Part shown: positions 36,949 to 60,241 of the stretch, piece after piece
Numbering within the stretch: the stretch's first letter is position 1
How the letters are laid out: each line of letters opens with the position of its first letter
Virus record (IMG/VR): IMGVR_UViG_3300018080_000099
Coordinates: 128,001 to 192,000 of that record
Source of the DNA: a virus
Reading direction: 5' to 3' (one strand)
Length of the DNA stretch: 64,000 nt
Notes under the pieces: model-generated
What the model was told of the DNA's origin: nothing
Databases searched by the model: none
The model's input: only the letters and a program-made list of their open reading frames with translations
Program-made: the position numbers and the translations under genes

Positions 36949-37266
36949 ATGAGTACAGGAATAAATATAAAAAGACTACATCATGTTATATTTGCCTCAA
37001 GTTACCGTTCAAAGATTAAGGTGCTTCAGAGTATAGGTAGAGGCCTGAGAACCCACAAGACTAAGGACTTGTTAATTGTGTGGGATATTGTTGATGACTT
37101 GAGTTTCATACACAAGTGGGGCGATAAGGATGTGCTTCACAAAAACCATGTGTTCAAGCACTGGTATCAGAGATTGCAATACTATAAAAAACAAGGCTTT
37201 AATTTTGTCACAAGAAAGATAAATACAACTGAATATTATACTCAGGAGGATTCGGAAAATGGCTAA
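36949..37266 (+). CDS. SF2 helicase C-terminal segment (motifs V and VI); candidate exon 2
   Basis: STGINIKRLHHVIF (motif V) and QSIGRGLR (motif VI). No RBS before its ATG. The in-frame sequence extends back to 36943. Confidence 0.6.
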   Translation: MSTGINIKRLHHVIFASSYRSKIKVLQSIGRGLRTHKTKDLLIVWDIVDDLSFIHKWGDKDVLHKNHVFKHWYQRLQYYKKQGFNFVTRKINTTEYYTQEDSENG

Positions 37267-43800: not shown

Positions 43801-45516
43801 GAATCGAGTAGTAGCGAATCAAGTCAGTCGTCACCAAGCTCAGAATCAAGCAGTAGTGAGTCCAGCTCAAGTGAATCGAGTCAGAGTTCACCATCATCGG
43901 AATCAAGCAGTAGTGAATCGAGTCAGAGTTCGCCTTCATCAGAATCTTCAGTAAGTGAATCAAGTCCGTCATCGGAATCAAGCTCAAGTGAGTCGAGCCA
44001 GTCGTCTGAGTCTAGCGAATCAAGTTCTTCGGAGTCTAGTCCGTCGTCTGAATCATCAGTCAGCGAATCAAGCCAGTCAAGTGAATCGTCCGTGAGCGAG
44101 TCGAGCCAGTCGTCTGAGTCGAGTGAATCAAGTTCCAGCGAATCTTCTCCGTCAAGTCCGTCGTCTGAGTCCAGCAGTTCCGAATCAAGCCCATCGTCAG
44201 AGTCAAGCGAATCAAGTTCTTCTCAGTCGAGTCCTTCGTCAGAGTCAAGCGAATCAAGTTCTTCTCAGTCGAGTCCTTCGTCAGAGTCAAGCGAATCAAG
44301 TTCTTCGGAGTCGAGTCCGTCGTCTGAATCTTCGAGTTCCGAATCGAGTCAGTCATCGCAGTCTAGTGAGTCAAGCTCAAGCCAGAGTTCACAGTCATCG
44401 GAATCGTCTAGTTCTGAGTCGAGTCCTTCGTCTGAGTCGTCTGAATCAAGCTCAAGCCAGTCATCACCATCGTCTGAATCTTCGAGTTCTGAGTCGAGTC
44501 CTTCTTCCGAATCTTCAAGTTCGGAATCAAGTCCTTCTTCCCAGTCGAGCCAGTCCGATGAATCAAGCTCAAGCATTTCAAGCTCAAGTGAGTCGAGTCC
44601 ATCTTCGGAGTCAAGTTCTTCTGAATCGAGTCCTTCGTCTGAGTCGAGTGAGTCCTCGCCGTCGAGTGAGTCAAGCTCAAGTGAGTCGAGTCCGTCGTCG
44701 GAATCAAGCGAGTCGAGTTCTAGCGAATCGAGCCCTTCATCTCAGTCGAGCGAATCTAGTTCCTCACAGTCGAGTCCTTCGTCACAGTCAAGCGAATCTA
44801 GTTCCTCACAGTCAAGTGAAAGCTCGCCATCTTCGGAATCTAGCAGCAGTGAATCTAGCTCATCTGAGTCGAGTGTAAGCTCACCGTCATCTGAATCAAG
44901 CGAATCGAGTTCTTCACAGTCGAGTGAAAGTTCTCCTTCGTCACAGTCGAGTGAGTCTAGTTCTTCTCAGTCAAGTGAATCTTCTCCTTCAAGTGAGTCG
45001 AGTTCTTCTCAGTCAAGTCAGAGTTCACCGTCATCTGAATCAAGCTCAAGTGAAAGCTCTCCTTCATCGGAGTCAAGCTCAAGCCAATCATCGGAATCAA
45101 GTCAAAGCTCTCCTTCGTCAGAGTCGAGCAGTAGTGAATCGAGTCCTTCGTCTGAATCAAGCGTATCTTCTGAGTCAAGTGAATCGAGTTCATCTAGTAG
45201 TTCGGAATCAAGTCAAAGCTCTCCTTCATCTGAGAGTAGCTCTTCGGAATCGAGCCAGAGTTCACCATCGTCCGAATCTAGCTCATCTGAATCAAGTCAA
45301 AGCTCGCCTTCATCTGAGAGTAGTTCTTCTCAGTCAAGTCAGTCGAGTCCAAGCTCAGAGTCGGAATCGAGCCAGTCATCGCCGTCAAGCGAATCAAGCG
45401 AATCAAGCAGTTCTGAATCAAGTCCTTCGTCTGAATCCAGTGAATCTAGTGAGTCAAGCTCAAGTTCGGCTACAACTCCACCAATGTTTTATTACTACAG
45501 ACGAAGAAGGCTATAA
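40885..45516 (+). CDS. Giant virion-associated protein: N-terminal Gly/Thr/Asn-rich beta-helix/adhesin-like domain (about 710 aa) plus a C-terminal tail of about 820 aa of Ser-Glu-Ser-Pro-Gln low-complexity repeats
   Basis: 1543-aa continuous ORF. Repeated GGT/TGG beta-solenoid-like units in the N-terminal half. The C-terminal half is almost exclusively SESSSSESSPSSESSQSSPS. Ends YYYRRRRL. Confidence 0.7.
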   Translation: MATFTDAQNGNWADTNSWNEVGFPVAGDDVTISAYNISLSADEACASLDIQGGNFNFGTGGYTMTVSGDYTVANSSGLITQGDGTLFLSGDGNLSTPHQDNGPDLIKCANSGYTTTLASTSEVRSMRWLGGTFGVGSSQHIAVGQQAGDEDLVFSADPGTTATVGGGGEIYFSTRNSETRNIAGFDFNAAIGLSFFGAGDFNISGTIFRTTGGIWNWMNPGSWNLLGGVNVDCEGLQNNDCTLNTGTGTHIFRSVTTFTSNATFNFSASNWILTGEWDPGSTTTVNTQQGTITFSGGSDQDVTSHGETLPDIIVDKSGGTVAQQDDFNCEDFSISGGTWDTNGGSNYDLDVDGDFLLAGGTIDVQSSDVLLAQGFLKTGGTLTEDSSRWIFNGNTGTHTIDSSSGILPTFIVSGTGGTWNWGGTNGFDAVTVEAGTFSLNNNSKQVSWTSLTVNGGFFDATNGTIEPYGGITIADAANIADFGTSKIVFPLGQSVSNPNSTNPFYNIVVDDGTVTMNSVLRCDGEIQIDGGTLDVQSYDVYCDDLDINGGTLDLSDAAGPTVYITGDIDATGSGTISEGSSTFDFYGDTDQNITSNGIAFNDVVVTNVDGTIRFVDASTISGTFAPGNGSSTVTVGFEESQNHYWGAYDDTNASGDSTVVLVSNSPTTQWNLTIGSNQSAFHTDVTDSNLTGNTIDATAAGNVDGGNNSVNWIFADESSSSESSSSESSQSSPSSESSSSESSQSSPSSESSSSESSPSSESSPSSESSSSESSPSSESSSSESSQSSPSSESSSSESSPSSESSSSESSQSSPSSESSQSSPSSESSSSQSSPSSESSSSESSPSSPSSESSSSQSSPSSESSSESSQSSESSVSESSQSSESSESSSSESSPSSPSSESSSSESSLSSESSESSSSESSPSSESSSSQSSQSSESSESSSSESSPSSESSQSSPSSESSSSESSQSSPSSESSSSESSQSSPSSESSSSESSSSESSQSSPSSESSSSESSQSSPSSESSVSESSPSSESSSSESSQSSESSESSSSESSPSSESSVSESSQSSESSVSESSQSSESSESSSSESSPSSPSSESSSSESSPSSESSESSSSQSSPSSESSESSSSQSSPSSESSESSSSESSPSSESSSSESSQSSQSSESSSSQSSQSSESSSSESSPSSESSESSSSQSSPSSESSSSESSPSSESSSSESSPSSQSSQSDESSSSISSSSESSPSSESSSSESSPSSESSESSPSSESSSSESSPSSESSESSSSESSPSSQSSESSSSQSSPSSQSSESSSSQSSESSPSSESSSSESSSSESSVSSPSSESSESSSSQSSESSPSSQSSESSSSQSSESSPSSESSSSQSSQSSPSSESSSSESSPSSESSSSQSSESSQSSPSSESSSSESSPSSESSVSSESSESSSSSSSESSQSSPSSESSSSESSQSSPSSESSSSESSQSSPSSESSSSQSSQSSPSSESESSQSSPSSESSESSSSESSPSSESSESSESSSSSATTPPMFYYYRRRRL
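43024..45480 (+). repeat. Degenerate tandem repeat of about 42 nt encoding the Ser-rich tail
   Basis: Repeated tcgagttc(a/t)agcgaatc(a/g)agc... units throughout. Confidence 0.85.
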
Positions 45517-45520
45517 ATAT
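45513..45520 (+). promoter_or_regulatory. T4-type late promoter TATAAATA (overlaps the TAA stop of the giant ORF)
   Basis: Exact motif 33 nt upstream of the ATG at 45554. Confidence 0.45.
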
Positions 45521-45553
45521 AAGTGTAAACCAATTGTAACATGGGAGATATGA

Positions 45554-46105: not shown

Positions 46106-46951
46106 ATGGCTAACTGGGTAGGGGTATATAACGCCGGTTGGTTCGGAGAAGGCACGACCAATTCCGACCCATTATCGGTATTCCATCACGGATGGTTCGT
46201 GAGTATGGAGATTAGCGGGGTTTCACCCTCTGCTAGCGTCTATGATAGCGTCTATCTGAACTACCAGAATGTCCCGAACCAGTATATCACCAAATGTATC
46301 AATAGCAGCTATGGCGGTTCCGTAGGAAACTATAACAACGAAAGAGAACTGTTCGATGTTCTTGTCACTGAAGCTTACAACAAGCACGGTGTCTGCATGG
46401 ATTACTACGTCACATCGTATGATAAGGCGTATGATAAGATTTGGGGCGAGGACAACGATAGAAGATACGTCCGCAGATTCGAAGTCATGGCATTCTTCAC
46501 ACTTCCGAGAGAGGAAAGACTCTGGACTAAGTTCGGAATTGAAGGCCTTGACTCATTTAGTATGTACGTTTCCAAGAGGCACTTCTGGACGGCTTCACAA
46601 TACGATGCCGCTCAGACAACTCCAAATGCTTATAGTCCGTATATTCCTAAAGCAGGAGACTACATTTACTCTAAATACAACAAATATGTCTATGAGATTG
46701 TCGAAGTAAAAGACGAAATCATGATGAACTTGCTGTCCAAACAGCACGTTTGGGAATTCATGGTGAAGCCATTCAAGGACGAACATATCGAAACCACGAG
46801 TCTTACATCGGCATCACCAATGTCAGCTATCACGAATAAGGATAGCGACAAGTTTGATATTACCAGTGTTGTGGACGCTAAGAAGCCAGATGTTAACTAT
46901 CAACCGCCTCCAACTGAGGAAGGTCCAGACGACCCATTTGGCAATTGGTAA
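46106..46951 (+). CDS. Hypothetical structural protein
   Basis: 281-aa ORF with ATG/TAA overlap. Confidence 0.5.
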   Translation: MANWVGVYNAGWFGEGTTNSDPLSVFHHGWFVSMEISGVSPSASVYDSVYLNYQNVPNQYITKCINSSYGGSVGNYNNERELFDVLVTEAYNKHGVCMDYYVTSYDKAYDKIWGEDNDRRYVRRFEVMAFFTLPREERLWTKFGIEGLDSFSMYVSKRHFWTASQYDAAQTTPNAYSPYIPKAGDYIYSKYNKYVYEIVEVKDEIMMNLLSKQHVWEFMVKPFKDEHIETTSLTSASPMSAITNKDSDKFDITSVVDAKKPDVNYQPPPTEEGPDDPFGNW

Positions 46952-46965
46952 AATAAGGAGGAAAC

Positions 46966-47265
46966 ATGGCAGAAGGTTTTAAGGACTTCAGAAGCAATAA
47001 AGAAAAGCCAAGAGAGGACTTGACAAAGAACGCTGATTGTCAGGAAGCTATCAGGGAACATATTATGGAAAAGATGGGAGTCAGTAATAACGCTCTTGTT
47101 TCCTTGGTTGTTCACGCTACAAGAAACACACCTGTCAATGAAAATGATGTTAAGGAACTTGAGTTTTTCGGATATATTGCCGAAGGAACAATAACCACAA
47201 AGGGAAAAGCTTTTCTTGACGAAGAAGAAACTATCGACAGATTGAAGAAAATGATTGGGTATTAA
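46966..47265 (+). CDS. Hypothetical protein
   Basis: 99-aa ORF with AGGAGG upstream. Confidence 0.45.
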   Translation: MAEGFKDFRSNKEKPREDLTKNADCQEAIREHIMEKMGVSNNALVSLVVHATRNTPVNENDVKELEFFGYIAEGTITTKGKAFLDEEETIDRLKKMIGY

Positions 47266-48244: not shown

Positions 48245-48268
48245 CTCAACTGACATTGAGGACATGAT

Positions 48269-48601
48269 ATGATAATTGTCAATCATTTATCAGAGTGGTT
48301 GTACAGTACTGATTGCTATGGCAACCGACTGGTACAGGACTGGGAAATCCCTTTCATCTTTGAGCGTCTAAACGAAATAGAATTAGAAGATTTAGTTATC
48401 GTTGAAGGAAACTTAGAAACCGACCAACCCAACTCTATCCTTGTTGACATCACCACACACATTTCAGGCACATTTCAACCGGGCAAAGATGTGATAATAT
48501 CCTTGGCCCATTTTATAAGACCGTGCCCTTGTGGATGTCACGAACTCCAGTGCGAATGTTATGTAGCTGACTGTGAGTGTTGTTCAGGAGAATGTACATA
48601 A
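48269..48601 (+). CDS. Cys-rich small protein
   Basis: CPCGCHELQCECYVADCECCSGEC at the C-terminus. 110 aa. Confidence 0.4.
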   Translation: MIIVNHLSEWLYSTDCYGNRLVQDWEIPFIFERLNEIELEDLVIVEGNLETDQPNSILVDITTHISGTFQPGKDVIISLAHFIRPCPCGCHELQCECYVADCECCSGECT

Positions 48602-51313
48602 ATGGCTGTAGGAGATGTATGTAAATATCGGGTTTCGACACATGCGTTACCAACTTCAGAAGATGTTTGGGAAGGTGTCGCCTTTGGTACAACTGTAGGA
48701 ACACCAGCCACCATCTATTCGATGAGCGCCAACAACATCGACATTCAGATAAACGAAACTGGATGGTATCTCGCTACATATCGTGTTAGAACTGAAGGTG
48801 AAGCTAATAACCGAAACATTCTAAGATGTAAAGCTGTATATGATAGAACTGATATTGAAGGTGCTATCGGAACTCGTTATTATCGAAACGATGCCAATGA
48901 TGAAGTTTGTCCAACCGCTCACTGCTTATTTGAAGTAACCGCAACAGGTAACTTCTTTAGAGTTGAAGCATTGGTTCGTGGAGAAGATTCGACACCAACA
49001 GATGATGCTACAACTGATAGTGAAGTTCAGTTGGTTCGACTTACAGATGAAACAGCCGCGTCCTATGCAAACTATACTGATGGTTCAGATACAGGAAGTT
49101 ATGGTACGACTACTTGGGATGGATTATCGTGGGATACTGTTGAAGATGAAACCGACACATCCGTCATCGAATTAAGCGCAGACGGAGAGACGGTTGAATT
49201 AAAAGAGATTGCAAGGTATCTTGTTTCGTACAATGTGACCTTCCAACATACAAACCGTTCCGCTAGAATTGGTCGAGCAACTCTTAATGGTGTCGAACTT
49301 CCAAACTCAAATAGTCAGCTATATCTTAGAGATACTGATGTTGACTTTAACTCCTTGAATGCTCTTTTCATTGTTGATGTTAGTGCTGCTAATTCTACAC
49401 TGAAAATAGAGGCACAGGTCGGTGATAACTCAAGTGGAGGGTCAAGAGTAGTAAATGCAAGCAGACTTGGTGTCATGCGATTGCCTGATACGGCTGAGGT
49501 TGTTATTGGTAGGGATGATACTGGTGGGCAGGAAATGGGTGGGGCTGGTAATGTTACCCTAATCAACTCATGTAGAACTACGCCCACAATTGACGCCGCA
49601 TCTTTTACAAGGAATGATAATACTACAATCGAAGTCGAGAAAGATGGTAACTATCTATTCATGCTTAATGGTAGATTGAATAGAGGGACTTCAACAGGTA
49701 CAAGATGTCAGATTCTTTCTCGATGGACATTGAATAATGTAGACCAACAGGTTCTTTCTACGTGCTACATTCGAGGTCTTCAGTCATCTCTTTACACATA
49801 CGATGGTGGATATGGTGCTTCATTTATAGCCAACCTTTCAGCTAATGACCAAATTGAGTTTGAGTCATTTGAGCAGGGTGATAACGGATTAGCACAGACA
49901 GTTGGTGGTAGTATTGGTATGGCGGCTTTGAACCTTGATACTTTGTTAGGTGAGGAATCAAGCTCCGAGTCAAGCTCACAATCGCAAGATATTTCATCAG
50001 AATCTTCTGAGTCTAGTTCATCTCAGTCAAGTCCTTCGTCAGAATCCAGCAGTAGTGAATCGAGCCAATCTTCTCCGTCAAGTCCTTCGTCTGAGAGTTC
50101 ATCTTCTCAGTCAAGTCCTTCTTCGGAATCGAGTTCCTCAGAGTCCAGTGTTTCGTCACCGAGTTCTGAGTCGTCAAGCTCACCGTCAAGTCCTTCGTCT
50201 GAATCGTCATCGTCTGAATCGAGTCAGTCTAGCCCATCTTCGGAGTCTAGTTCAAGCGAGAGTTCGGAGTCGAGTCCTTCGTCTGAGTCCAGCAGTTCGG
50301 AATCAAGCCCATCATCCGAAAGCAGTTCTTCTCAGTCAAGCCCATCTTCTGAGTCAAGTTCTAGCCAGTCCAGTCCTTCGTCCGAGTCGTCCGAATCGAG
50401 TCCTTCATCCGAAAGTAGTTCTTCTCAGTCAAGTCCTTCTTCCGAATCAAGCCCTTCTTCGGAATCGAGTTCTAGCCAATCTTCGCCGTCATCGGAATCG
50501 AGTTCTAGCCAGTCTAGTCCTTCATCGGAGAGCAGTTCTTCTCAGTCAAGTCCTTCGTCTGAATCCTCGGAATCGTCAAGCTCACAATCAAGCCCATCGT
50601 CCGAGTCGAGCAGTAGCGAAAGTTCTCCTTCGTCTGAGTCGTCTGAATCAAGCTCAAGTCAGTCTAGTCCTTCGTCCGAATCAAGTTCATCGGAATCGAG
50701 CCTGTCAAGTCCTTCATCTGAGAGTAGTTCTTCTCAGTCAAGTCCTTCGTCAGAATCTAGTTCCAGTGAATCGAGTGTTTCTTCTCCTTCTTCGGAATCG
50801 AGTAGTAGTGAAAGCTCTCCTTCGTCCGAATCTAGCGAATCAAGCTCAAGTGAATCGAGCCCATCTTCGGTATCGTCCGAATCAAGCTCAAGCGAATCTA
50901 GTCCTTCATCGGAATCTTCGAGTTCGGAATCAAGCTTGTCATCACCGTCAAGCCAGAGTGAAGAAAGTGAATCGTCTGAATCAAGTTCTAGCCAGTCATC
51001 TCCTTCGTCTGAATCAAGCTCATCCGAATCAAGCCAGTCGTCGCTTTCATCTGAATCAAGTTCCAGCGAAAGTTCGGAATCAAGCCCGTCGTCACCATCG
51101 TCAGAATCAAGTAGTAGCGAATCAAGTCCTTCGTCTGAATCCAGTTCAAGTGAATCAAGCCCATCTTCGGCATCGAGTGCTTCGTCAGAATCAAGTTCAT
51201 CATCGGTATCAAGCGCTTCTTCGGAATCTAGCTCATCCGAATCTAGTTCATCCGAGGGGCCACAACCCATAGTTGGTAGGAGACTAAATAACCGTATAAT
51301 GATGTTGTCGTAA
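48602..51313 (+). CDS. Second large virion-associated protein: N-terminal folded domain of about 445 aa plus a C-terminal Ser-Glu-Ser repeat tail of about 440 aa
   Basis: 903-aa ORF. The tail composition is identical in style to that of 40885-45516. Confidence 0.7.
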   Translation: MAVGDVCKYRVSTHALPTSEDVWEGVAFGTTVGTPATIYSMSANNIDIQINETGWYLATYRVRTEGEANNRNILRCKAVYDRTDIEGAIGTRYYRNDANDEVCPTAHCLFEVTATGNFFRVEALVRGEDSTPTDDATTDSEVQLVRLTDETAASYANYTDGSDTGSYGTTTWDGLSWDTVEDETDTSVIELSADGETVELKEIARYLVSYNVTFQHTNRSARIGRATLNGVELPNSNSQLYLRDTDVDFNSLNALFIVDVSAANSTLKIEAQVGDNSSGGSRVVNASRLGVMRLPDTAEVVIGRDDTGGQEMGGAGNVTLINSCRTTPTIDAASFTRNDNTTIEVEKDGNYLFMLNGRLNRGTSTGTRCQILSRWTLNNVDQQVLSTCYIRGLQSSLYTYDGGYGASFIANLSANDQIEFESFEQGDNGLAQTVGGSIGMAALNLDTLLGEESSSESSSQSQDISSESSESSSSQSSPSSESSSSESSQSSPSSPSSESSSSQSSPSSESSSSESSVSSPSSESSSSPSSPSSESSSSESSQSSPSSESSSSESSESSPSSESSSSESSPSSESSSSQSSPSSESSSSQSSPSSESSESSPSSESSSSQSSPSSESSPSSESSSSQSSPSSESSSSQSSPSSESSSSQSSPSSESSESSSSQSSPSSESSSSESSPSSESSESSSSQSSPSSESSSSESSLSSPSSESSSSQSSPSSESSSSESSVSSPSSESSSSESSPSSESSESSSSESSPSSVSSESSSSESSPSSESSSSESSLSSPSSQSEESESSESSSSQSSPSSESSSSESSQSSLSSESSSSESSESSPSSPSSESSSSESSPSSESSSSESSPSSASSASSESSSSSVSSASSESSSSESSSSEGPQPIVGRRLNNRIMMLS
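49946..51250 (+). repeat. Ser-rich-tail coding repeat (paralogous to 43024-45480)
   Basis: Same degenerate 42-nt unit. Confidence 0.85.
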
Positions 51314-51330
51314 CAATTAAAGGAGTTTAT

Positions 51331-53025
51331 ATGAGCGTTGAATTGACTTTTAGTACATGTGACAGAATACCAATCCCATTCGAGAACCACTACAAAAACT
51401 CTTCATGTTTCTTGGTGCTTTCCGGCCCGTCATTGAACAATCACGACCTGACAAAGATTCAGCAACCGGGTATTACCACATTTGGCGTAAACAATTCTCC
51501 GAAAGCATTTAGGCCCAACATGTGGATTTGTGTGGACCACCCTTCAAGGTTCATGATTAGCATATGGAAAGACCCGAACATTACTAAGTTCGTGCCGTTC
51601 TTTAAAGCCAAATCTAACCTCTTTGATAACTTCAACTGGCAGAACACCGACAGAAGGGTTATGGATTCTCCGAATGTTGTGTACTACCATCGGAACGAAC
51701 AGTTCAATCCCGACACATTCTTGACTGAAAAGACTGTCAACTGGGGAAACCACAAGAAGTATGGTGGTGGCCGAAGTGTTATGATGGCGGCACTGAAGAT
51801 TTGCTATCTGCTGGGATTCAAAAACGTGTTCCTGCTTGGATGTGACTTCAAGATGGAGAAGGATAAGCAAAACTACTCATGGGAACAAAACCGAAGTGTC
51901 GGTTCCGTGAGAGGAAACAACAGCACATATAATAAAATGATTGATAGATACACGAAGCTTCAACCGATTTTTGAGGAGAAGGACTTCCATGTGTACAACT
52001 GCAATCCCGACTCTCAGCTTCAAGTCTTTCCGTACATGTCCTATGACGATGCCGTGGCAACTGCATTGAAAGAGTTCCCTGATGTGAAAACAGAAAGAGC
52101 TGAAGGAATGTATGACAGATTTGATGCTGAAGAAAAGAGGAAAAAGGATAAAAAGAAAATGAAGCAAATTGAGAAAATCAAGAAGTCCGAGAAACCGATT
52201 GAAGGCTCTTGTGGAGTCATCTATTACAATGTGGGTAAGGGAGCCTTGGTAAGACTTGCGGTATCTCTTGCAACTTGTGTGAATCACTACCCTAAAGACA
52301 AGATAACAATTCTGGCAGACTATGAAGGCTACAATGAATGTAAGAAGATTGCAAAACACTTCGGAGTCAACTTGAAAATCATTGAACTGGAAAAGCTTGA
52401 CAAGAAGGAAGTCCTTCTCAATAAGTGTTTGGCACACACATACACACCTTATGACAATACGATATTCATAGATTCTGATACCATTGTACTGGGAAGCTTT
52501 GATGAACTACATGATGAAGCTGAAAAGCATGAATTCGTAACTACACAGTTCTCAGACTGGCTAACCACAAGGGGAGTCATTAAGAAAAGAATCAAGGAGT
52601 GGAAGCCTATCTTCCCAGATATGATTGGTGAAGCTCTCAAGGAGAGGCCATCAGTCAATGTGGGTGTCTTTGCATTTCGTAGGGATAGTGAATTTATGAA
52701 GGTGTGGTTTGATTATGCTAAGCATGGAACTCACATGTTCATTCCTGATGAACAATGCTGTCATTTGCTTATACCAAAGTTCAAGAACAGTATCGTATCA
52801 CACGACTACAACTCAAGTTGTAAGTATGACGAAATAACCGATTCCACCAAGATTCTTCACTTCCACGGAAGGAAGCACTGTCGAGTGGACGAAGATGGAA
52901 CATACAAATTCAATAGCGACAAATGGTATGCTGAGTTTGACAAGATTAGAGAGTTGGACTTTGTTAAGGACAATATCCAACACGATAGACAACTGAGAAA
53001 GCATTTACCGATGAGGGACAAATGA
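51331..53025 (+). CDS. Two-domain putative glycosyltransferase: N-terminal Maf/CstII-like (GxGPSL...GCDF) domain and C-terminal GT8/GT-A-like DxD domain
   Basis: LVLSGPSL and LLGCDFKM motifs in the N-terminal half. YNVGKGALVRLAVSLATCVNHY followed by IDSDTIV (DxD) in the C-terminal half. 564 aa. Confidence 0.5.
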   Translation: MSVELTFSTCDRIPIPFENHYKNSSCFLVLSGPSLNNHDLTKIQQPGITTFGVNNSPKAFRPNMWICVDHPSRFMISIWKDPNITKFVPFFKAKSNLFDNFNWQNTDRRVMDSPNVVYYHRNEQFNPDTFLTEKTVNWGNHKKYGGGRSVMMAALKICYLLGFKNVFLLGCDFKMEKDKQNYSWEQNRSVGSVRGNNSTYNKMIDRYTKLQPIFEEKDFHVYNCNPDSQLQVFPYMSYDDAVATALKEFPDVKTERAEGMYDRFDAEEKRKKDKKKMKQIEKIKKSEKPIEGSCGVIYYNVGKGALVRLAVSLATCVNHYPKDKITILADYEGYNECKKIAKHFGVNLKIIELEKLDKKEVLLNKCLAHTYTPYDNTIFIDSDTIVLGSFDELHDEAEKHEFVTTQFSDWLTTRGVIKKRIKEWKPIFPDMIGEALKERPSVNVGVFAFRRDSEFMKVWFDYAKHGTHMFIPDEQCCHLLIPKFKNSIVSHDYNSSCKYDEITDSTKILHFHGRKHCRVDEDGTYKFNSDKWYAEFDKIRELDFVKDNIQHDRQLRKHLPMRDK

Positions 53026-54410
53026 GAGATTTTACAATCGTAACAGCCTGCACGCCGGACTATCTGACGAAGCTTCAATGGAGTTTGCCGTCATGGAATA
53101 CGAAGCCTCAGTTCAGGGGTAAGAAGATGATTCTATTCCACCACGGCTTTGACAACCTGAAAAATCTCAGGTTTGTCAAGAAGCATTTCGATGTCAAGTT
53201 TGTGCATTGGGATATGCCAGAGTACGCCAATGTGAGAGAGTTAATGCTCTCGTCATTCATTCTGGGTTCGGCTAGGTATGTCAAAACCAAATACTTTGTG
53301 AAGATAGATGCCGACACCTATTTCACGAATCCAGACGATGTGTTTGGTAGGAGAGATTTCAGGTACGATGTCGTGTCTCATAAATGGAGATATACGAAGC
53401 CGGGCCATTGGATAAACGACTTGGACAAATACTACTTGGACAAAGATACAGGTAAGTATGGAAGATTGTACCACGAGCCAAGAATACAAAGTATATGTTG
53501 CCTACACAAGACAGAGTTTGTTAGGAGACTAGCTGAAAGATTTGGTGAGAGACTTCCTGTGCCGAGTCACGACACGGTTCTATGGTACTTTGCTGATAGA
53601 ATGCCGGACAGGAGTTGGAAGGGTAGGAACCTGAGAAAGCGAGGAGTCGGTCATGCATCTCAATGGAAAACCATTCGGGAAGGTGTTTGTGCTACCGGCG
53701 ATGCCAACAACGCATTCCTTAGAGATAGTTTGATGAATAACATTCAACTGGAAGTGACTTCATTCTGCCAGTTGGGATGTTTCAACTGTGATAGGAACTG
53801 TGGCATTTACAAGGATGCTACATATATCCCATTGGAGGATATTCAGAAGTTTGTGGACGATTCTATCCGGTTCAATAAGAAGTGGAGTCGTATAGATATT
53901 ATTGGAGGCGAGCCGACATACTATCCGTACTATCAGCAGATGTTTGAAGTGATTAAACAGTATAAAGATTTTTACCCAAAGTGTCGAGTCAGATTCAGCA
54001 CGAATGGTTTGGGTAAGTTTGTCAATGAGAGATTGAAGGAGATTCCGGCATGGGTTCATGTTAGAAACTCCAACAAGTCAAGTCGGAAGCAGGCATTCAC
54101 TTCATACAATTCGGCACCAGTTGACAACGGGGAAACCGAAATAAAGGCTTGCTCGATTCCGTGGAGATGTGGAATGGCTTTGACACAACACGGATACTTT
54201 ATCTGTGGTGCCGGTGCTTCCCTTGCCAAGGTGTTTCAGTTTGATATTGGTATCAAGAACTTTGAGGAAGTGGAGCCGGGCAGACTACTGAATCAGATTC
54301 CAATTCTGTGTAAGTACTGTGGACACAGCAACTGCAAGAGTAAGCATATAACGGAAGTTGAAGAAATCAGTGAGAGCTGGCAAAAAGCATTGGATAAAAG
54401 GGAAAAGTAA
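53022..54410 (+). CDS. Fusion protein: glycogenin-like GT8 glycosyltransferase N-terminal domain plus a radical-SAM domain with a SPASM/twitch-like C-terminal Cys cluster
   Basis: FTIVTACTPDYL together with KIDADTYF (the GT8 A-VT...DY and DxD motifs). Then CQLGCFNC (CxxxCxxC) and IDIIGGEPTYY (the GGEP SAM motif). Then C-terminal CSIPWRCG...CKYCGHSNC. Confidence 0.6.
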   Translation: MRDFTIVTACTPDYLTKLQWSLPSWNTKPQFRGKKMILFHHGFDNLKNLRFVKKHFDVKFVHWDMPEYANVRELMLSSFILGSARYVKTKYFVKIDADTYFTNPDDVFGRRDFRYDVVSHKWRYTKPGHWINDLDKYYLDKDTGKYGRLYHEPRIQSICCLHKTEFVRRLAERFGERLPVPSHDTVLWYFADRMPDRSWKGRNLRKRGVGHASQWKTIREGVCATGDANNAFLRDSLMNNIQLEVTSFCQLGCFNCDRNCGIYKDATYIPLEDIQKFVDDSIRFNKKWSRIDIIGGEPTYYPYYQQMFEVIKQYKDFYPKCRVRFSTNGLGKFVNERLKEIPAWVHVRNSNKSSRKQAFTSYNSAPVDNGETEIKACSIPWRCGMALTQHGYFICGAGASLAKVFQFDIGIKNFEEVEPGRLLNQIPILCKYCGHSNCKSKHITEVEEISESWQKALDKREK

Positions 54411-55348
54411 TGGGAGCTTTTTATAAGACGTTTAATGAAAAGATACGAGAGGTTTGGAAGCTAGCAACCCAACTGGACAAACCAGTACGAGAGAACCTTA
54501 CATGGACTGTTGGTATTATCAATGGTAGATGTGACTTTGAGGATTTACAGGCACATGGAGCCGCCCTCATGGCAAGCATCATCATTAAGGAGAAAGTAGT
54601 TCCCAAAATCATTTGTGTCTGGGACACCCCGACTGATACTAACACCAGTAAGTGGGACCTTGAGGAAAGACAACGAATCTATCCTTTGTATCTTTTAAGA
54701 CTGTTTGACGAATTTGATGAAAGCTTTTTGGAGAAACCAAAGATATTCAGCTGCAATCGGCTGAGTAACCAATATGTTTCGTTACACAGGGCCGGTTGGT
54801 CAGTCAATCCAATTCCATCAGGATTGACGCTTGGTTATAGGGCTAAGTATCTTGGTTTGAATTATGTCAGGACGACGCACGCTATCATGTCAGATATTGA
54901 TACTATATGCACGGATGAGTGCTGTGATTATGTTCAGGAAAACATTGATAGAAACCCAGAGACCTTTTGTTTAACGAATTACTACGATAATGAGAATGTG
55001 AGTGTAGGGCTTGTAGCATTCAACATGCGAAAGTACAGAGAAGTCTATTTACCACTGTGGCATGAGATGTATTGGAAGTTACCGAAAGCCGATGCTAAGT
55101 TCATTCAAGCTATTCGGAAAGAATATCTTGAATGTCAGGATGAGCTTGATATACAATTGATGGACAAGAACGTTGTCAACACTGAAAAATACTACCACAA
55201 TATTCCAAGGAAGAATCACTGGGTAGATGATAAGTCAAAACACTACCATGCTTGGAAAGGTGAGATGGAGCAAAACACCGAAGAGTTCAATAGCTTCTAT
55301 AACGACATACTGGACAATCTAATAAAGGATGCAAAAACAAATGATTGA
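54410..55348 (+). CDS. Hypothetical protein within the glycosylation cluster
   Basis: 312-aa ORF with ATG/TAA overlap on both sides. No motif recognised. Confidence 0.45.
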   Translation: MGAFYKTFNEKIREVWKLATQLDKPVRENLTWTVGIINGRCDFEDLQAHGAALMASIIIKEKVVPKIICVWDTPTDTNTSKWDLEERQRIYPLYLLRLFDEFDESFLEKPKIFSCNRLSNQYVSLHRAGWSVNPIPSGLTLGYRAKYLGLNYVRTTHAIMSDIDTICTDECCDYVQENIDRNPETFCLTNYYDNENVSVGLVAFNMRKYREVYLPLWHEMYWKLPKADAKFIQAIRKEYLECQDELDIQLMDKNVVNTEKYYHNIPRKNHWVDDKSKHYHAWKGEMEQNTEEFNSFYNDILDNLIKDAKTND

Positions 55349-56081
55349 AATGTGTGTAGTGTGTTACAACTTTCAGAGAAGATGGACAATGCAGTTAGCT
55401 TCTTTGGCTCAGCAAATAGAACCACCGGACTTCATAATCAATGTTGCTTATGTCAAGGACAACGGCAACCCGGATGTAGAAACGGTTGTGAATTTCTATG
55501 AGCAAAAGGGACTAAAGTTCAAGTTGACTCCATATGAGCATATGGGTAAAGGTAGAGGGCTCATCAGGAATCGACAGGTTCAAAAATCTTCGGAAGATTG
55601 GTTACTGTTTATGGACTGTGATTTGATTTACCACCCTACGTTTTTTCAAGGGATAGCAAAGCATATGAACCCGGACTGTCAAAACGTAATCGGAGTGCCG
55701 AATATTGCTTATACAAGGGTTGAGAATGTGAATCCATTTTTTGACAATTTTGAATCTATGTATGTTGAATCAGCTTATGATGTAGCGAAATCATTTGGGA
55801 TAACAAGAACGCATGGTCAGAAAAGGAAGGGAGCCAATGGAGGCTTCCAATTGGTTAGGAGAGAAATGGTGATGGAGAAGTGCAAAGGTAGATATGTAAA
55901 TCCCAAACGAACAGGTGATAAGCAGATGGGCCACATGGGAACCAGAAGCGATATTAAGTTCAGACAAGCTATTGATGGAGGGGCATACAGGTCGAAAATG
56001 ATTAATACACTACCAGTACAAATTCACCTTGAACATTGGCGAAAGATAGATGAACAATTTAACATCGAGGCACAACGATGA
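55329..56081 (+). CDS. Family 2 (GT-A) glycosyltransferase
   Basis: GKGRGLIRNRQVQKSSEDWLLFMDCDL, the GT2 signature (ARNxG...FLDxDD pattern). Confidence 0.65.
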   Translation: MQKQMIEMCVVCYNFQRRWTMQLASLAQQIEPPDFIINVAYVKDNGNPDVETVVNFYEQKGLKFKLTPYEHMGKGRGLIRNRQVQKSSEDWLLFMDCDLIYHPTFFQGIAKHMNPDCQNVIGVPNIAYTRVENVNPFFDNFESMYVESAYDVAKSFGITRTHGQKRKGANGGFQLVRREMVMEKCKGRYVNPKRTGDKQMGHMGTRSDIKFRQAIDGGAYRSKMINTLPVQIHLEHWRKIDEQFNIEAQR

Positions 56082-56746
56082 AGCTACATTCAAATACGAG
56101 AAGGGTTTTGTTTGAGGAACTAAAGCAAGAATGTTATGGCCTGAAAATGATTTCTCAGGACAGCATTCCAAATATGATTGACATTGGAGCTAATGTTGGA
56201 ATGTTATCAATCATGGCAAGATTGCTTCATCCTCATATGAATATATTTGCTTTTGAGCCCCACGAAGAAACGTTTAAGGATTTGAAAGAGAATGTTGACA
56301 ATCTGAGAATCAAAACATACAGGTATGCTTTTGGAAATGGCGACGTGTTCTACTTGACAAAAGAGAGAAAGATGGACTTGTGTAATAGTTTTAGTACTGA
56401 AAAGAACATTATTAATAAGACACAAGAAATCCAAAGTCTCGACCTTGAGCAAATTTTCAAGATGGTTAGTGTTGAACCAGAGGACACATTCCTCAAAATA
56501 GATTGTGAGGGAGCTGAAACGTTTATGGTGGATTGCCCGAAGTCAATTGAGTTACTGAAAAGAACAAAGCTTGTTGCAATGGAAGCTCATGAAAAGGACG
56601 CTGTGATTAAGCTAAAACCCTTCATAGAATGGTTTATGAAAACGATGTGGGGAACACATACAGTAATCATTGACAAGCAAACCAGTGTTGTGGCGAAGTT
56701 ATTAGCCGTTGAAAAATCTTATTACAGGAGCCAGTTATCCATATGA
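56078..56746 (+). CDS. FkbM-family SAM-dependent methyltransferase
   Basis: MIDIGANVGMLS...NIFAFEP, the FkbM domain signature. Confidence 0.7.
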   Translation: MKLHSNTRRVLFEELKQECYGLKMISQDSIPNMIDIGANVGMLSIMARLLHPHMNIFAFEPHEETFKDLKENVDNLRIKTYRYAFGNGDVFYLTKERKMDLCNSFSTEKNIINKTQEIQSLDLEQIFKMVSVEPEDTFLKIDCEGAETFMVDCPKSIELLKRTKLVAMEAHEKDAVIKLKPFIEWFMKTMWGTHTVIIDKQTSVVAKLLAVEKSYYRSQLSI

Positions 56747-57297
56747 TTTGGCACAAACAATTTCCGAAACTTATACAACACATAGCGAAGGGCATGAGTG
56801 TAAGCAATGGCTTAAACAACTACTTGGAGCTGGGTGTGTTTCGGGGTAGGACTTTTAATAGAGTTGCCCCATATGCCAAGAATGCCTATGCCGTTGATAT
56901 GAAGAAGGTTTTCTACAAATATATCGCCCACAACGAGAACCTCGTGTGGTACAGATGTACCACGGACGAGTTCTTTGAACAGTTGGACGAGAATACGATG
57001 TTTGATTTAGTATTCATAGACGCTAACCATTCCCGTGAGAATAGCATGAGGGACTTTAAGAACTCTTTTAAGCACTTAAATGGGAATGGAATAATCTTAT
57101 TGCATGACACTTATCCACCGGACGAATCTCAGATTACTGATGGAATCAATGGATGTGGCACAGCATATCAAACGGCTTTAGAAATTAAGCAGGAATGGGG
57201 AGAAGTCTGTGAAATAACGACACTTCCGTTCTGGTTTGGGATTTCAATAGTGAGGAAAATTTCAAATAATGTTCAGCTATATTGGAAAGGAGAGTAA
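56743..57297 (+). CDS. Class I SAM-dependent O-methyltransferase (TylF/MycF-like)
   Basis: YLELGVFRGRT (motif I) and DLVFIDANHS (DxDH). Confidence 0.65.
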   Translation: MIWHKQFPKLIQHIAKGMSVSNGLNNYLELGVFRGRTFNRVAPYAKNAYAVDMKKVFYKYIAHNENLVWYRCTTDEFFEQLDENTMFDLVFIDANHSRENSMRDFKNSFKHLNGNGIILLHDTYPPDESQITDGINGCGTAYQTALEIKQEWGEVCEITTLPFWFGISIVRKISNNVQLYWKGE

Positions 57298-57653
57298 TCA
57301 TGATTAAGCAATCCAAGATTTGGGGTGAAACAAGTAAATTCTTTTCAAAGAATAATGTGGAGATACATAGACTAAATATAACTGAGGGAGGCTATTGTAG
57401 CGAACACTACCACAACTTTAAGTACAACATGTTCTTAGTTGAGAGTGGTGAGATTGAAGTGACAATCTATCGTGATAATGGTATCAAGGAAACGACAGTT
57501 TTGAAGGATTGTGACCAGACTACAGTTCCCCCGAATTTCATTCATCGCTTCAAAGCCAATAAGGATTCAGTAGTCTATGAAATATATTGGGTTGCCCTTG
57601 AAGGTGAAGATATTGAGAGGCGTACTGTTGGAGGGACAACAGTAATAGAATGA
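57282..57653 (+). CDS. Cupin-fold protein (sugar epimerase/isomerase-like, RmlC/FdtA type)
   Basis: SEHYHNFKYNMFLVESGEIEV cupin motif. 123 aa. Confidence 0.45.
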   Translation: MERRVIMIKQSKIWGETSKFFSKNNVEIHRLNITEGGYCSEHYHNFKYNMFLVESGEIEVTIYRDNGIKETTVLKDCDQTTVPPNFIHRFKANKDSVVYEIYWVALEGEDIERRTVGGTTVIE

Positions 57654-57659: not shown

Positions 57660-57667
57660 TATAAATA
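57660..57667 (+). promoter_or_regulatory. T4-type late promoter TATAAATA
   Basis: Exact motif 35 nt upstream of the ATG at 57703, with AGGAGG in between. Confidence 0.5.
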
Positions 57668-57702: not shown

Positions 57703-57909
57703 ATGCCAATCGTAGTAGGAACGCTTAATATTCCGGGCGAAGATGACCAGACTACAGTCTCAGCTGTAGACATTGATGCCAACGGACAGACTGTACTGAT
57801 TACTTATGTTGATAGTAGTGGAAATCTTAAAGTCAAGGGTACGAGTATTACACAGAACGTAGACGGAAGTCTACCAGTTCCAATGTCAGGTTGTTCTATA
57901 ACACCTTAA
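57703..57909 (+). CDS. Small hypothetical protein
   Basis: 68-aa ORF with RBS AGGAGG. Confidence 0.45.
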   Translation: MPIVVGTLNIPGEDDQTTVSAVDIDANGQTVLITYVDSSGNLKVKGTSITQNVDGSLPVPMSGCSITP

Positions 57910-57922
57910 CGGAAATTGATAA

Positions 57923-59011
57923 ATGAACCTTGAAGATTTCAAAAGAGAAAAAGAAATCCAAGAAGGTCTTCAGGAAATTTTTAGCGATAATACAAAGCCA
58001 GAACAAATTGACGAAAGTAAAAAGGTTAAGATTTCCAAAGAGGGCTTAAAGGAATTCCTCAAAAAGGACGAAAAACCTGTTGTCGAAGAGCCAGTTGAGG
58101 AGCCGGTTGAGGAACACATTCACGAACCTGTGCCAGAGCCGGAACCAAATCCAGTATCGGATTTGGAAGATAATCCCGAGGATGAAGTTTGGGATGAGCC
58201 TGTCGAGGAAGAAGTTGCTAAAACTCCTAACATGATGGATAGGCTTCTTGAAAAGGAAGAAGCTCCTGAGGGACCACAGACAGTTCAGACGAGCATGGCT
58301 CAGTACCTCGCGTATGGAGGCGGTGGAGAGAACAACTCCATTGTCAACTTAGGTGAAGGGACAACTATCTATAAGGATAAGATTGGGCCAGACCTTCGTA
58401 TTAAAACGCTTTCCGCCACAGGCAGTGCTTCACTTTCCGAAGTCGGAGATGTAATTGTTATTAATGCCACCGATGTAAGTGGTACTGACTCTTGGAGAGG
58501 AGTTTCGGCGGACTACTATACCAAGTCTGAAACATATTCACAGACTGAAGTTGATGCTCTTATATCAGGTGTCAGTGCTGACTCTGATTCATGGCCTTCA
58601 GTATCCGCAGACTATTACAATAAGACAGATACAGATAGCTTGTTAGCTACAAAGGCGGACATTTCTGCCGTTTCAGCAGACGCAGATTCATGGCCTTCAG
58701 TATCAGCCGACTATTACAATAAGACGGAAGTTGATGCATTAGTTTCGGGTGCAAATGTTATAAGTCAAACAGTTTCATACTCAGCAACATCCGCAGACGA
58801 TGTTATTCTTTGTAGTGCTTCAAATGTAAGTCTTTTACCAGCAAATGAAGTAGAAAATAGAACTATCAGTGTAAAGAATAGAAGCAATACAACGCAGTGT
58901 ACAGTTGATGTGCAAGGTGGCGGAACGATAGATAAAGTCACAAGTCAAGTAATATTGGCTTTAGACAACTTACAGGTTGTTTCAGATGGGACGGAATACT
59001 GGATAATTTAA
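57923..59011 (+). CDS. Fibre protein with a Pro/Glu-rich N-terminus, the shared GGGGENNSI module and three internal tandem repeats
   Basis: AYGGGGENNSIVNLGEG is paralogous to 47255-48244. Repeats (D)SWPSVSADYYNKT(D/E) occur three times. Confidence 0.55.
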   Translation: MNLEDFKREKEIQEGLQEIFSDNTKPEQIDESKKVKISKEGLKEFLKKDEKPVVEEPVEEPVEEHIHEPVPEPEPNPVSDLEDNPEDEVWDEPVEEEVAKTPNMMDRLLEKEEAPEGPQTVQTSMAQYLAYGGGGENNSIVNLGEGTTIYKDKIGPDLRIKTLSATGSASLSEVGDVIVINATDVSGTDSWRGVSADYYTKSETYSQTEVDALISGVSADSDSWPSVSADYYNKTDTDSLLATKADISAVSADADSWPSVSADYYNKTEVDALVSGANVISQTVSYSATSADDVILCSASNVSLLPANEVENRTISVKNRSNTTQCTVDVQGGGTIDKVTSQVILALDNLQVVSDGTEYWII

Positions 59012-59023
59012 GGAGAAACATAA

Positions 59024-60241
59024 ATGAGTTTTCTTGATAGAACAAAAAGAATACCAAAGTTTACAGGCACAATCTATTATGTTGAGCCTGATGGTGATGA
59101 TAGTAATGACGGATTATCTCCTGAGGCAGATTTGCAGACAATTGGCGCAGCTATTGCTAAATTAAGTTCTGGTGATGCTATTGTAGTCGGAGCAGGAAAC
59201 TATACAGAAAATAATTTGAATTTGAATGTCAACGCTTGTGAAATGTGGTTTGAAATTGGTGCTCAAATATCTCCAACGTCTGGTACTGCTCTTACTATTT
59301 CTGGTAACTTTTGCAGAGTAACTTGTCGTGAAGGTGCTTTGAAAGTCAACCCTGCCAACGGTGAGGCTGGTGTTGTTGTTACTGGTAATTTCTGCTATCT
59401 TGACGAAATAAGAGTAGCTTGTAATTCAGTAGGAACTTTTGGTTATGATTTTCAAGGGGATGGTGCTGATGCAAGAAGATGTAGATGTGCTTCTCCAACT
59501 TCAGCGGCATTTAGAATACAAGGCGACACTTGTAAGCTTGAGGACTGTTGTACAGGTGGAGAAGTTGCTAATAATTCTATTGGATTTTGGATTACAACAT
59601 CTGCTGATAAACCAAGGTTAAAATATTGTGGTTCACAGGGCCATGCGGCTGGTGGTTTTATAGTTGATGCTGGAGTAACAAATGGTGCATTGAACTGGAT
59701 TTACACAGGCGAAGGCGATGGTAAATGGAGAGATGATACTCGTGCTTGTGTTTGGGGTGAATTGGATTATGACGATGAACACTTTACAACAATTACACTA
59801 GATGGTTCTACAACATACAATCTTTTTAAGTTTACAGGCGCAGTAAGACTTTCAGATATTTATGGGAATGTTATTAGTGCAATAGATAATACGAGTAGCA
59901 GTATTCATTTAGAATTGTATTCTACTAGTGGTACTGCTGATATAACAGATGCACCCGGACTACAGATTCAAGCAGACCCATCTGGAACTTTATACATGCG
60001 AAATGAGCCGTCTGACCAGGCTTTAAATAAAGCTGAAACAGATTCAGGGCCAGCATTTACAGAGGCAGACCCCGGAAGTTTCTTTAATCCATCAGACAAG
60101 ACATCAGTTGATTGTGTAGCAGACACTAATGCAGATACTTATGTCAGGTTAGTTTTAAGTGATGCTGTTACTGGTGGCCAGATGCGTTGGCATTGTCATT
60201 GGATGCCTTTGTCTAATGATGGATTTTTAGAAGATGTATAA
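59024..60241 (+). CDS. Right-handed beta-helix (pectin-lyase fold) tailspike/depolymerase-like protein
   Basis: Repeated GNFC/NxxG coils: ISGNFCRVTCREGALKV, VVTGNFCYLDEI, FRIQGDTCKLEDC. Confidence 0.5.
   Translation: MSFLDRTKRIPKFTGTIYYVEPDGDDSNDGLSPEADLQTIGAAIAKLSSGDAIVVGAGNYTENNLNLNVNACEMWFEIGAQISPTSGTALTISGNFCRVTCREGALKVNPANGEAGVVVTGNFCYLDEIRVACNSVGTFGYDFQGDGADARRCRCASPTSAAFRIQGDTCKLEDCCTGGEVANNSIGFWITTSADKPRLKYCGSQGHAAGGFIVDAGVTNGALNWIYTGEGDGKWRDDTRACVWGELDYDDEHFTTITLDGSTTYNLFKFTGAVRLSDIYGNVISAIDNTSSSIHLELYSTSGTADITDAPGLQIQADPSGTLYMRNEPSDQALNKAETDSGPAFTEADPGSFFNPSDKTSVDCVADTNADTYVRLVLSDAVTGGQMRWHCHWMPLSNDGFLEDV

Follow-up and report, generated by a model that had tools for sequence, protein, structure and literature searches.

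A seven-gene sugar-modification cluster beside poly-serine proteins in the late region of a remote T4-like phage: a candidate virion O-glycosylation cassette

The late region of a 64,000-nucleotide stretch of viral DNA (IMG/VR record IMGVR_UViG_3300018080_000099, positions 128,001 to 192,000; the whole of this stretch is called the window below) carries a sugar-modification cluster of seven genes, here numbered g1 to g7, in the company of two genes for proteins with very long serine tracts. The seven open reading frames (ORFs) are arranged head-to-tail on the plus strand at 51331-57653, with adjacent ORFs overlapping by 1-20 nt or standing 2 nt apart. An AAAGGAG ribosome-binding site lies upstream of g1, and 18 nt separate g1 from the stop codon of the second serine-rich gene (Table 1). 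A first-pass annotation, made from the letters of the window, had proposed that this cluster glycosylates the virion and had pointed to the two serine-rich proteins as targets. The layout of seven tightly overlapping genes which it described is confirmed by the exact ORF coordinates and by gene calls made independently on a 263.8-kb metagenomic contig (ena:ERZ27256796:k141_2651556); the genes of the window are also present on a Logan contig and in IMG/VR, and the phage occurs in the samples ERZ27256796, SRR6963352 and IMG 3300028920. As the 6.3-kb cluster has no DNA match among GenBank phages (megablast and blastn), annotation cannot be transferred from them. In profile searches with hidden Markov models the ORFs fall in glycosylation and sugar-modification families. 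Five sugar-pathway proteins and a cupin were thus correctly recognized from the beginning, whereas the seventh gene, g3, no longer counts as hypothetical.

The g1 protein had been described as a two-domain transferase, Maf-like at one end and GT8-like at the other, and both fold and profile matches agree with this, the Maf score being sub-threshold. Its N-terminus scores 28.9-31.2 bits against Pfam PF01973 (MptE-like/Maf; E 1e-6 to 2e-7), with a gathering score of 34.6, and 23 of 27 homologues match the same model, each at E 2.3e-7 or weaker. The N-terminus also matches a PHROG labelled 'alpha-2,3-sialyltransferase' (E 1e-9), and a comparison with the PDB by sequence alone returns a marginal sialyltransferase match (E 0.26). 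An AlphaFold2 model of g1 was obtained from 20 homologues with a mean predicted local distance difference test (pLDDT) of 87.7, and the domain has the central Rossmann-like transferase fold of the Maf type. The C-terminal domain shows a GT-A fold with a DxD motif and has GT8 structures as its nearest neighbours; Pfam Glyco_transf_8 remains below threshold here (16.8 bits vs 24.3), and a PDB profile search with g1 finds glycogenin (E 7e-4).

For g2, a GT8 domain fused to a radical-SAM/SPASM domain had been suggested, of which the radical-SAM (S-adenosylmethionine) part holds. Pfam Radical_SAM scores 31.2 bits (threshold 29.5), the C249-x3-C253-x2-C256 (CX3CX2C) motif is invariant, and four more invariant cysteines follow downstream (C377, C395, C430 and C433). 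The SPASM assignment is not confirmed: the best solved relative is the SPASM sactisynthase CteB, which aligns over the core only (E 4e-7), while the C-terminal domain has no SPASM match in Pfam, and NCBIfam twitch/SPASM matches are far sub-threshold. The N-terminal domain of g2, which contains the motifs K94-x-D96-x-D98 and PxPSHD (PxPSxD across the family), belongs to a family of 90 unnamed metagenomic proteins found by profile search, about 260 amino acids (aa) long when standalone. This family has no Pfam domain (27 members gave no consistent Pfam family) and the g2 domain has no PDB sequence match. Weak hhalign alignments were obtained with the GT8 domain of g1 (E 0.02, probability 2%) and with g3 (E 0.005, probability 7%), both centred on K-x-D-x-D. 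Given these weak DxD profiles and the lack of a Pfam or PDB match, we do not endorse the GT8 label; that the domain is GT-A-like would be a guess.

By sequence, g3 matches nothing in Pfam, PHROG, NCBIfam or the PDB. Its structural model, however, is of high confidence (pLDDT 90.9, predicted template modelling score 0.91) and retrieves XXYLT1 (1e-7), LARGE1, UGGT and GlyE with Foldseek, so that, judged from the model, g3 is a GT-A/GT8-like glycosyltransferase. With this fold assigned, the cluster contains at least four glycosyltransferase domains (Maf-like, GT8-fold, g3 and GT2). The assignments of g4 to GT2 and of g5 to the FkbM methyltransferases stand, both with models above curated thresholds. 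In the case of g6 the methyltransferase holds but 'TylF-like' does not, the matching family being Pfam Methyltransf_24; its PHROG match carries the label 'DNA methyltransferase'. The cupin g7 is WbuC-like (WbuC cupin E 2e-6, sub-threshold).

Table 1. Positions of the cluster genes, the serine-rich genes and neighbouring late features in the window
Feature	Position	Strand	Description
Serine-rich protein 1, 1543 aa	40885..45516	+	~690-aa non-repetitive N-region; ~834-aa tract; short C-terminal tail ...PPMFYYYRRRRL
Late-promoter motif, T4-type, TATAAATA, exact	45512..45519	+	upstream of the block from p183 to the cupin gene
gp14-like neck (head-closure) protein	46106..46951	+	PHROG 679/460 head closure Hc2, E 7e-13; PF11649 T4_neck-protein
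Collagen-repeat fibre protein, 329 aa	47255..48244	+	Pfam Collagen 26.1 bits (just under the cut-off of 27.2); many PHROG tail-fibre matches
Serine-rich protein 2, 903 aa	48602..51313	+	~450-aa N-region; ~430-aa tract, 71% Ser, 306 serines; C-terminal tail ...RRLNNRIMMLS
g1, 564 aa	51331..53025	+	~1-265 Maf/MptE-like (DUF115) domain; helical linker; ~290-564 GT8-fold retaining GT-A domain, D381-x-D383
g2, 462 aa	53022..54410	+	1-235 unnamed conserved family; 236-462 radical-SAM domain
g3, 312 aa	54410..55348	+	predicted GT-A fold, GT8-like glycosyltransferase; invariant D162-x-D164
g4, 250 aa	55329..56081	+	GT2; Pfam Glycos_transf_2 36.4 bits vs 23.3; weak NCBIfam EpsD/HpsE matches
g5, 222 aa	56078..56746	+	FkbM SAM methyltransferase; TIGR01444 61.5 vs 37.7; PF05050 29.6 vs 22.7
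g6, 184 aa	56743..57297	+	class I SAM methyltransferase; Pfam Methyltransf_24 44.7 bits vs 26.3
g7, 117 aa	57300..57653 (ATG; alternative TTG start 57282)	+	single-domain cupin; Cupin_2 28.2 vs 27.2
Late-promoter motif TATAAATA, exact	57660..57667	+	directly 3' of the cluster; heads the next unit, fibre-like genes 57703-60241
Fibre-like gene downstream of cluster	57923-59011	+	acidic PVEE repeats, then 'SADYYNKT-x-DxL' repeats
Fibre-like gene downstream of cluster	59024-60241	+	N-terminal fibre/baseplate-wedge-like segment; faint Pel9A beta-helix match
Portal gp20	61285-63120		with the neck protein gp14, encloses the cluster

The two serine-rich proteins are real, as had been claimed: both tracts are in frame with the non-repetitive N-terminal domains of their proteins. 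The tract of serine-rich protein 1 is composed of 69% Ser, 15% Glu, 6.5% Pro and 5% Gln and contains 574 serines, and the tracts follow the motif pattern SSESSxS. In both tracts all six serine codons are in use, and the DNA repeats (33-84 nt in the gene of serine-rich protein 1) are degenerate, mostly with 64-87% matches, which argues for selection on the amino acid and against a DNA satellite. Long antisense or alternative-frame ORFs over the repeats (50734-51390 on the minus strand, 218 aa of the 'LDSDELDS' type, and 41316-45193 on the minus strand) were rejected as shadow ORFs produced by the repeats. The N-region of serine-rich protein 1 has a weak G8/beta-helix-like match (Pfam G8, sub-threshold), while that of serine-rich protein 2 contains BclA_C/C1q-like beta-sandwich repeats (BclA_C E 2.5e-7, sub-threshold). 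As neither N-terminal domain has a match in GenBank phages or PHROGs, homology does not show the proteins to be part of the virion. The NRIMMLS end of serine-rich protein 2 (51293-51313) recurs in a 1782-aa serine-rich ORF (...TLKNRIMMLS, L008:5326-5347) of a relative whose g1 is 77% identical and whose tracts otherwise differ; this 7-residue C-terminal peptide may be an anchoring or assembly signal.

To evaluate the pairing of such tracts with the Maf-like gene, IMG/VR was scanned with the g1 alignment, which yielded 47 loci, or 43 after removal of duplicates. An ORF was counted here as serine-rich if it measured 200 aa or more, contained a stretch of 60 aa or more with a Ser content of 55% or higher, and lay no more than 10 kb from the Maf-like gene; a looser Ser/Thr criterion was dropped, since 9 short antisense ORFs of control loci had passed it wrongly. 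Such an ORF is present in 18 of the 43 non-redundant loci. Nearly all of these ORFs (26 of 27) share the strand of the Maf-like gene, at a median distance of 4.7 kb. As controls we used 88 T4-like portal loci on contigs without a Maf gene (828 kb vs 764 kb of sequence). None of the 88 carries a serine-rich ORF (Fisher p = 1e-10); when only those controls that are 10 kb or longer are counted, the result is 0/31 (p = 1e-5). Across loci the tracts keep Ser alone, whereas the partner residues vary (E/P/Q, T, L or N), and the tract may be C-terminal, internal or N-terminal.

The genomic neighbourhood of close and distant relatives shows a similar pattern. In phages with g1 proteins that are 77-80% and 65% identical, serine-rich giants are retained beside reshuffled clusters. 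Four further IMG/VR relatives (L060, L061, L070 and L072; portal 41-63% identical) have a gp14-to-portal interval of about 1.6-6.5 kb with neither cluster nor serine-rich ORF, and between gp14 and portal they are also devoid of the collagen fibre and of the window's fibre genes. The ~14-kb interval of the window therefore behaves as an accessory cassette. Judging from these comparisons, the Maf-like cluster and the serine-rich genes behave as one cassette in the window's lineage. The link of the cluster to the serine-rich proteins, at first a matter of adjacency, thereby gains comparative support from both the locus counts (18/43 vs 0/88) and the joint absence in relatives.

These data also bear on the possibility that the enzymes act on different parts of the virion, for example on the collagen-like fibre or, as in mycobacteriophages, on proteins of the capsid or tail, and that the serine-rich genes are independent accessory cargo of a hypervariable fibre region. 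The block does include the gene of the collagen-repeat fibre along with further fibre-like genes, and the collagen-like regions of BclA, an exosporium protein of Bacillus anthracis, are glycosylated. However, the association with poly-Ser persists across loci with just 30-35% identity between their Maf domains and with otherwise unrelated genes, it is found in non-T4 and prophage-like contexts as well, and cluster and serine-rich ORFs are jointly missing in the close relatives described above. We thus consider this explanation unlikely, although the collagen-repeat fibre protein is a possible additional substrate.

Apart from the tracts, the surroundings of the Maf-like genes are rich in enzymes of sugar metabolism. 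A Pfam census of 148 ORFs flanking Maf-like genes in 38 loci gives FkbM (10), Methyltransf_24 (8), cupin (7) and GT2 (4) as the leading families, followed at lower ranks by UDP-galactopyranose mutase, sulfotransferase, GT8, epimerase/dehydratase, formyltransferase and GNAT. By their family content, these surroundings can be regarded as a sugar-tailoring neighbourhood. Found most regularly beside the Maf-like gene are members of the g2 N-domain family and a small cupin, then GT2; homologues of the cupin g7 adjoin Maf-like genes in more than 20 loci. In a close relative the fused radical-SAM domain is replaced by a separate radical SAM and a Gfo/Idh/MocA oxidoreductase, a replacement that points to sugar chemistry. 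Altogether, 336 unnamed g1 homologues were found, and the Maf-like core alone is 45-60% identical in more than 100 proteins of varied architecture.

Enzymes of this kind might equally remodel a glycan of the host envelope (lipopolysaccharide, capsule or S-layer glycan) or build a lipid-carrier glycan, thereby serving superinfection exclusion or progeny release. In line with this, clusters for O-antigen and exopolysaccharide typically contain GT2, GT8, FkbM and WbuC-like cupins, and the best NCBIfam matches are EpsD, HpsE and WbuC. Yet the cluster includes no flippase, polymerase, initiating phosphoglycosyl transferase or membrane protein, it lies among late structural genes in a T4-like phage of lytic type, and the poly-Ser association would remain unexplained. 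An envelope target therefore appears quite unlikely to us.

The pairing of enzyme and tract extends to cellular genomes. Among 185,579 species genomes we found 204 Maf-like relatives, the best 80 of which come overwhelmingly from Verrucomicrobiota/Planctomycetota metagenome-assembled genomes (MAGs) at 40-50% identity, a distribution that hints at the host range of the phage. In three MAG loci of these phyla (L159:11614-18945, L174:408-7733 and L187:3190-9222), Maf-like genes with domains 40-50% identical to the g1 core adjoin proteins of 2000-2400 aa that carry SSSESSSS-type tracts at their start or inside, together with RHS repeats or with DUF6531 and Laminin_G_3. The pairing of enzyme and poly-Ser is thus not limited to virion fibres. 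On one phage-like MAG contig (L147) the whole cluster recurs. Taken together, the distribution of these sequences suggests that the enzyme-substrate pairing predates the source phage. A prophage or tail-like element seems to be the setting on a 1.9-Mb contig of a Phycisphaeraceae MAG (L221:5489-12282): a gene for a tape-measure-like protein of 664 aa is followed by one for a methyltransferase, then by the Maf-like gene, and finally by one for an S/G-rich protein of 508 aa in which a Hint (intein-like) domain is embedded.

The expression of the cluster was assessed from promoter motifs. The exact T4-type late-promoter octamer TATAAATA occurs 9 times in the window vs 1.98 times expected, and always has the orientation of the genes around it (spans 472-4702 on the minus strand and 33877-63138 on the plus strand); four of the 9 copies are found at 0.4-4.7 kb, where the genes are on the minus strand. 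Late promoters had been predicted for the cluster, and this is supported only indirectly, since no late-promoter consensus is found directly upstream of g1, while the octamers at 45512 and 57660 bracket the block. No convincing terminator was found from 45512 to 57653. The two octamers would thus delimit one putative late unit (45554-57653) that comprises neck, fibre, serine-rich protein 2 and the seven genes. In the interval between the two serine-rich genes lie p183, the gp14 neck protein, a small ORF, the collagen-repeat fibre gene and p110.

In conclusion, the first-pass proposal is borne out wherever sequence analysis could check it, in some points more strongly than before. We propose that this late-expressed cassette O-glycosylates serines in the poly-Ser stalks of both neighbouring fibrous proteins, in the cytoplasm and before particle assembly, and we judge this proposal to be probable, if far from certain. 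As the Maf/poly-Ser pairing recurs in many unrelated phage contigs, mucin-like, sugar-coated stalks are probably built on virus fibres. The first sugar-Ser bond would probably be made in the cytoplasm by the Maf-like domain of g1, as this domain is common to all loci and its relatives of known structure attach sugars by O-linkage to flagellin Ser/Thr. Maf enzymes are known to O-glycosylate Ser/Thr in the cytoplasm (PMC11339370, PMC4065374). The GT8-like, GT-A and GT2 domains would then extend the glycan, the FkbM enzyme g5 and the Methyltransf_24 enzyme g6 would methylate it, and cupin and radical SAM would tailor a sugar; the oxidised sugars that had also been suggested would be hypothetical. 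The product would be a stiff, protease-resistant and extended spacer, a mucin-like 'bottle-brush', that holds the folded N-terminal domains (beta-helix-like in one protein, BclA_C/C1q-like in the other), as binding domains, away from the particle.

Several observations weigh against this reading. The Maf-like domain stays under the Pfam gathering threshold and is devoid of the flanking domains of true Maf proteins. No serine-rich ORF lies inside 10 kb in 25 of the 43 Maf-seeded loci, a number that also speaks for other virion targets, and the difference between 18/43 and 0/88 refers to controls from T4-like portal neighbourhoods only and to loci that are not phylogenetically independent. The serine-rich proteins are presumed to be in the virion from the position of their genes only. 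Neither the window ORFs scanned nor the census families include a nonulosonic-acid or nucleotide-sugar pathway that would identify the donor. Furthermore, the source phage is uncultured and no cultured phage carries the cluster, and no GenBank phage has the Maf-like family, the sole weak match being in an uncultured 462-kb phage (LR756500.1, 25% identical). As no serine-rich ORF or partner gene lies near it, we regard this match as uninformative.

A different chemistry was considered as well. The serine tracts could be modified not, or not first, by sugars, for instance by an MptE-like kinase or pyrophosphokinase that would turn the S-x-E motifs into a phosphoserine polyanion, or by the radical SAM, the closest solved relative of which modifies peptides (formylglycine, D-Ser or cross-links); we rate this as improbable.

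T4-like phages classically glycosylate DNA, T4 itself glucosylating hydroxymethylcytosine, so that hypermodification of the phage DNA with a methylated glycan has to be considered, too. The source phage is indeed T4-like, as had been stated, which is confirmed by its portal, gp14 and replication proteins, but it is a remote member of the T4 superfamily (markers: portal, gp14, gp32, UvsX, gp41, gp43, gp44, gp46/47 and RNase H) with at most 30% portal identity to any GenBank phage. The minus-strand half of the window encodes a gp43-like polymerase, a gp41-like helicase, the clamp loader, gp32, UvsX, RNase H and gp46/47 as well as ribonucleotide reductase and a gp1-like dNMP kinase. This kinase and the PHROG label of g6 could be taken in favour of a DNA substrate. 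However, the cluster lies in the late neck/fibre block, away from the genes of nucleotide metabolism, no hydroxymethylase was found among the window genes, and the poly-Ser association is again left unexplained. Moreover, if any enzyme of the window acts on DNA, a glycosyltransferase in the replication module (5964-6749, minus strand; PF13712) is the likelier one. Modification of DNA by the cluster is, in our opinion, most improbable. The glycosyltransferase at 5964-6749 (PF13712 Glyco_tranf_2_5, 76 bits), listed together with 1554-2309 and 7446-8417 on the same minus strand, adjoins the gp44-like clamp loader, and the gp1-like dNMP kinase is nearby. It is a candidate for the modification of DNA or for some other early function, separate from the late cluster.

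Genes for the gp14 neck protein, for fibre-like proteins and for the gp20 portal are found in the plus-strand half of the window, from about 33.5 kb. The gp14-like gene marks the neck/fibre part of the late module, and the second of the fibre-like genes downstream of the cluster (59024-60241, plus strand) may encode a tailspike. An HNH/homing-endonuclease gene (36038-36904, plus strand), situated within a stretch of only 33% GC (36000-38000; about 42% elsewhere), probably represents a mobile insertion where the late region starts. A single tRNA gene, tRNA-Met (CAT), is found at 319-389 on the minus strand, and the UvsW-like helicase of a related phage contains an intein (L005/L006:4669-6498; Hint, Hom_end_hint and Intein_splicing matches).

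Compared to known systems, the one proposed here resembles a hybrid of Maf flagellin glycosylation and the glycosylation of streptococcal serine-rich-repeat proteins (SRRPs), placed in a phage late module as in the virion glycosylation of mycobacteriophages, and is a member of none of the three. Maf proteins are nonulosonic-acid O-glycosyltransferases of flagellin, examples being Magnetospirillum Maf (PDB 5MU5), Clostridium botulinum Maf (PMC11339370) and Aeromonas Maf1 (PMC3426422, PMC4065374). Relative to the three-domain architecture of Maf proteins, g1 keeps only a core of about 260 aa, which is fused to a GT8 domain, and is missing the N-terminal and the flagellin-binding C-terminal domains. 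Neither flagellin nor a nonulosonate pathway is found near the phage genes (flagellin, NeuB/PseI and CMP-synthetase are not found among the window ORFs scanned or the 25 most frequent neighbour families of 38 loci). Whereas Maf acts on a few surface Ser/Thr, the proposed acceptors here are poly-Ser tracts. With the SRRPs, adhesins of Gram-positive bacteria (GspB, Fap1, PsrP), the phage locus shares a long serine-rich substrate beside its glycosyltransferases, but the enzyme sets are unrelated: SRRPs are modified first by the initiating GtfA/GtfB pair (GT4 + DUF1975) and then by Gtf3, GlyD, GlyE (PDB 5GVV) and others, while GT-B/GT4 or Sec components (GtfA/GtfB, SecA2/SecY2/Asp) were not found in the cluster or the scanned neighbours. 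Instead of the LPXTG anchor, the phage proteins end in ...YYYRRRRL and ...NRIMMLS; instead of SAS(T/E/V) dipeptide repeats, their tracts consist of 70% Ser with E/P/Q; and the late-module system adds methyltransferases, a cupin and a radical SAM.

Among viruses, Freeman et al. are said to have reported in 2023 (Cell Host Microbe) that phage-encoded glycosyltransferases beside structural genes O-glycosylate virion proteins of mycobacteriophages. There, too, the glycosyltransferase genes are embedded in the structural/late module. The targets, however, are short C-terminal extensions of capsid and tail-tube subunits, the phages are siphoviruses that infect actinobacteria, and the enzymes differ, being of GT2/GT4 type; poly-Ser proteins, a Maf-like enzyme and a radical SAM, all encoded by the source phage, are not known from them. 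Giant eukaryotic viruses likewise glycosylate capsid or fibrils with their own enzymes (PBCV-1 A64R, PDB 2P6W; Mimivirus R699, PDB 9DYT), yet both the acceptors (major capsid protein, fibrils) and the pathway genes differ. BclA of Bacillus anthracis is an exosporium filament whose globular domain is C1q-like and whose repetitive stalk is heavily O-glycosylated and bears methylated sugars. Serine-rich protein 2 would share with it the filament, the C1q-like domain (BclA_C match sub-threshold) and the repetitive stalk, the glycosylation of which is proposed for the phage; the BclA stalk, in contrast, is collagen-like (GXX with Thr) and not poly-Ser, and the domain order is reversed. A literature search yielded no description of this system in phages, and the 'moraphage' paper mentions glycosyltransferases only generically (PMC12619734).

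More broadly, the data would be compatible with a widespread O-glycosylation system of phages and prophage-like elements, many of them apparently of Verrucomicrobiota/Planctomycetota, with a core of a truncated Maf-like transferase, the unnamed DxD family and a small cupin. Such a system would turn poly-Ser into mucin-like glyco-stalks on virion fibres and giant Rhs-type proteins, the glycan of the source phage being methylated and radical-SAM-tailored, and would produce 'hairy', sugar-coated T4-like particles with hundreds of modified serines per fibre. We put this forward tentatively, at somewhat less than even confidence.

To our knowledge, a few mycobacteriophages are the only phages with proven glycosylation of the virion, which in their case weakens recognition by antibodies. 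If our proposal is true, the cassette would be a second and mechanistically different phage case, in which hundreds of serines are decorated on long fibre stalks, and a viral counterpart of the bacterial serine-rich-repeat adhesins. This would bear on the means by which jumbo phages in the environment attach to hosts or particles and withstand proteases. The two large unnamed families, Maf-like and g2 N-domain, which have hundreds of metagenomic members and no annotation, would acquire a likely function, and their compact enzymes could be of use for the engineering of poly-Ser glycoconjugates. Finally, the poly-Ser 'low-complexity' ORFs of viromes would have to be read as glycoprotein stalks and not as junk.

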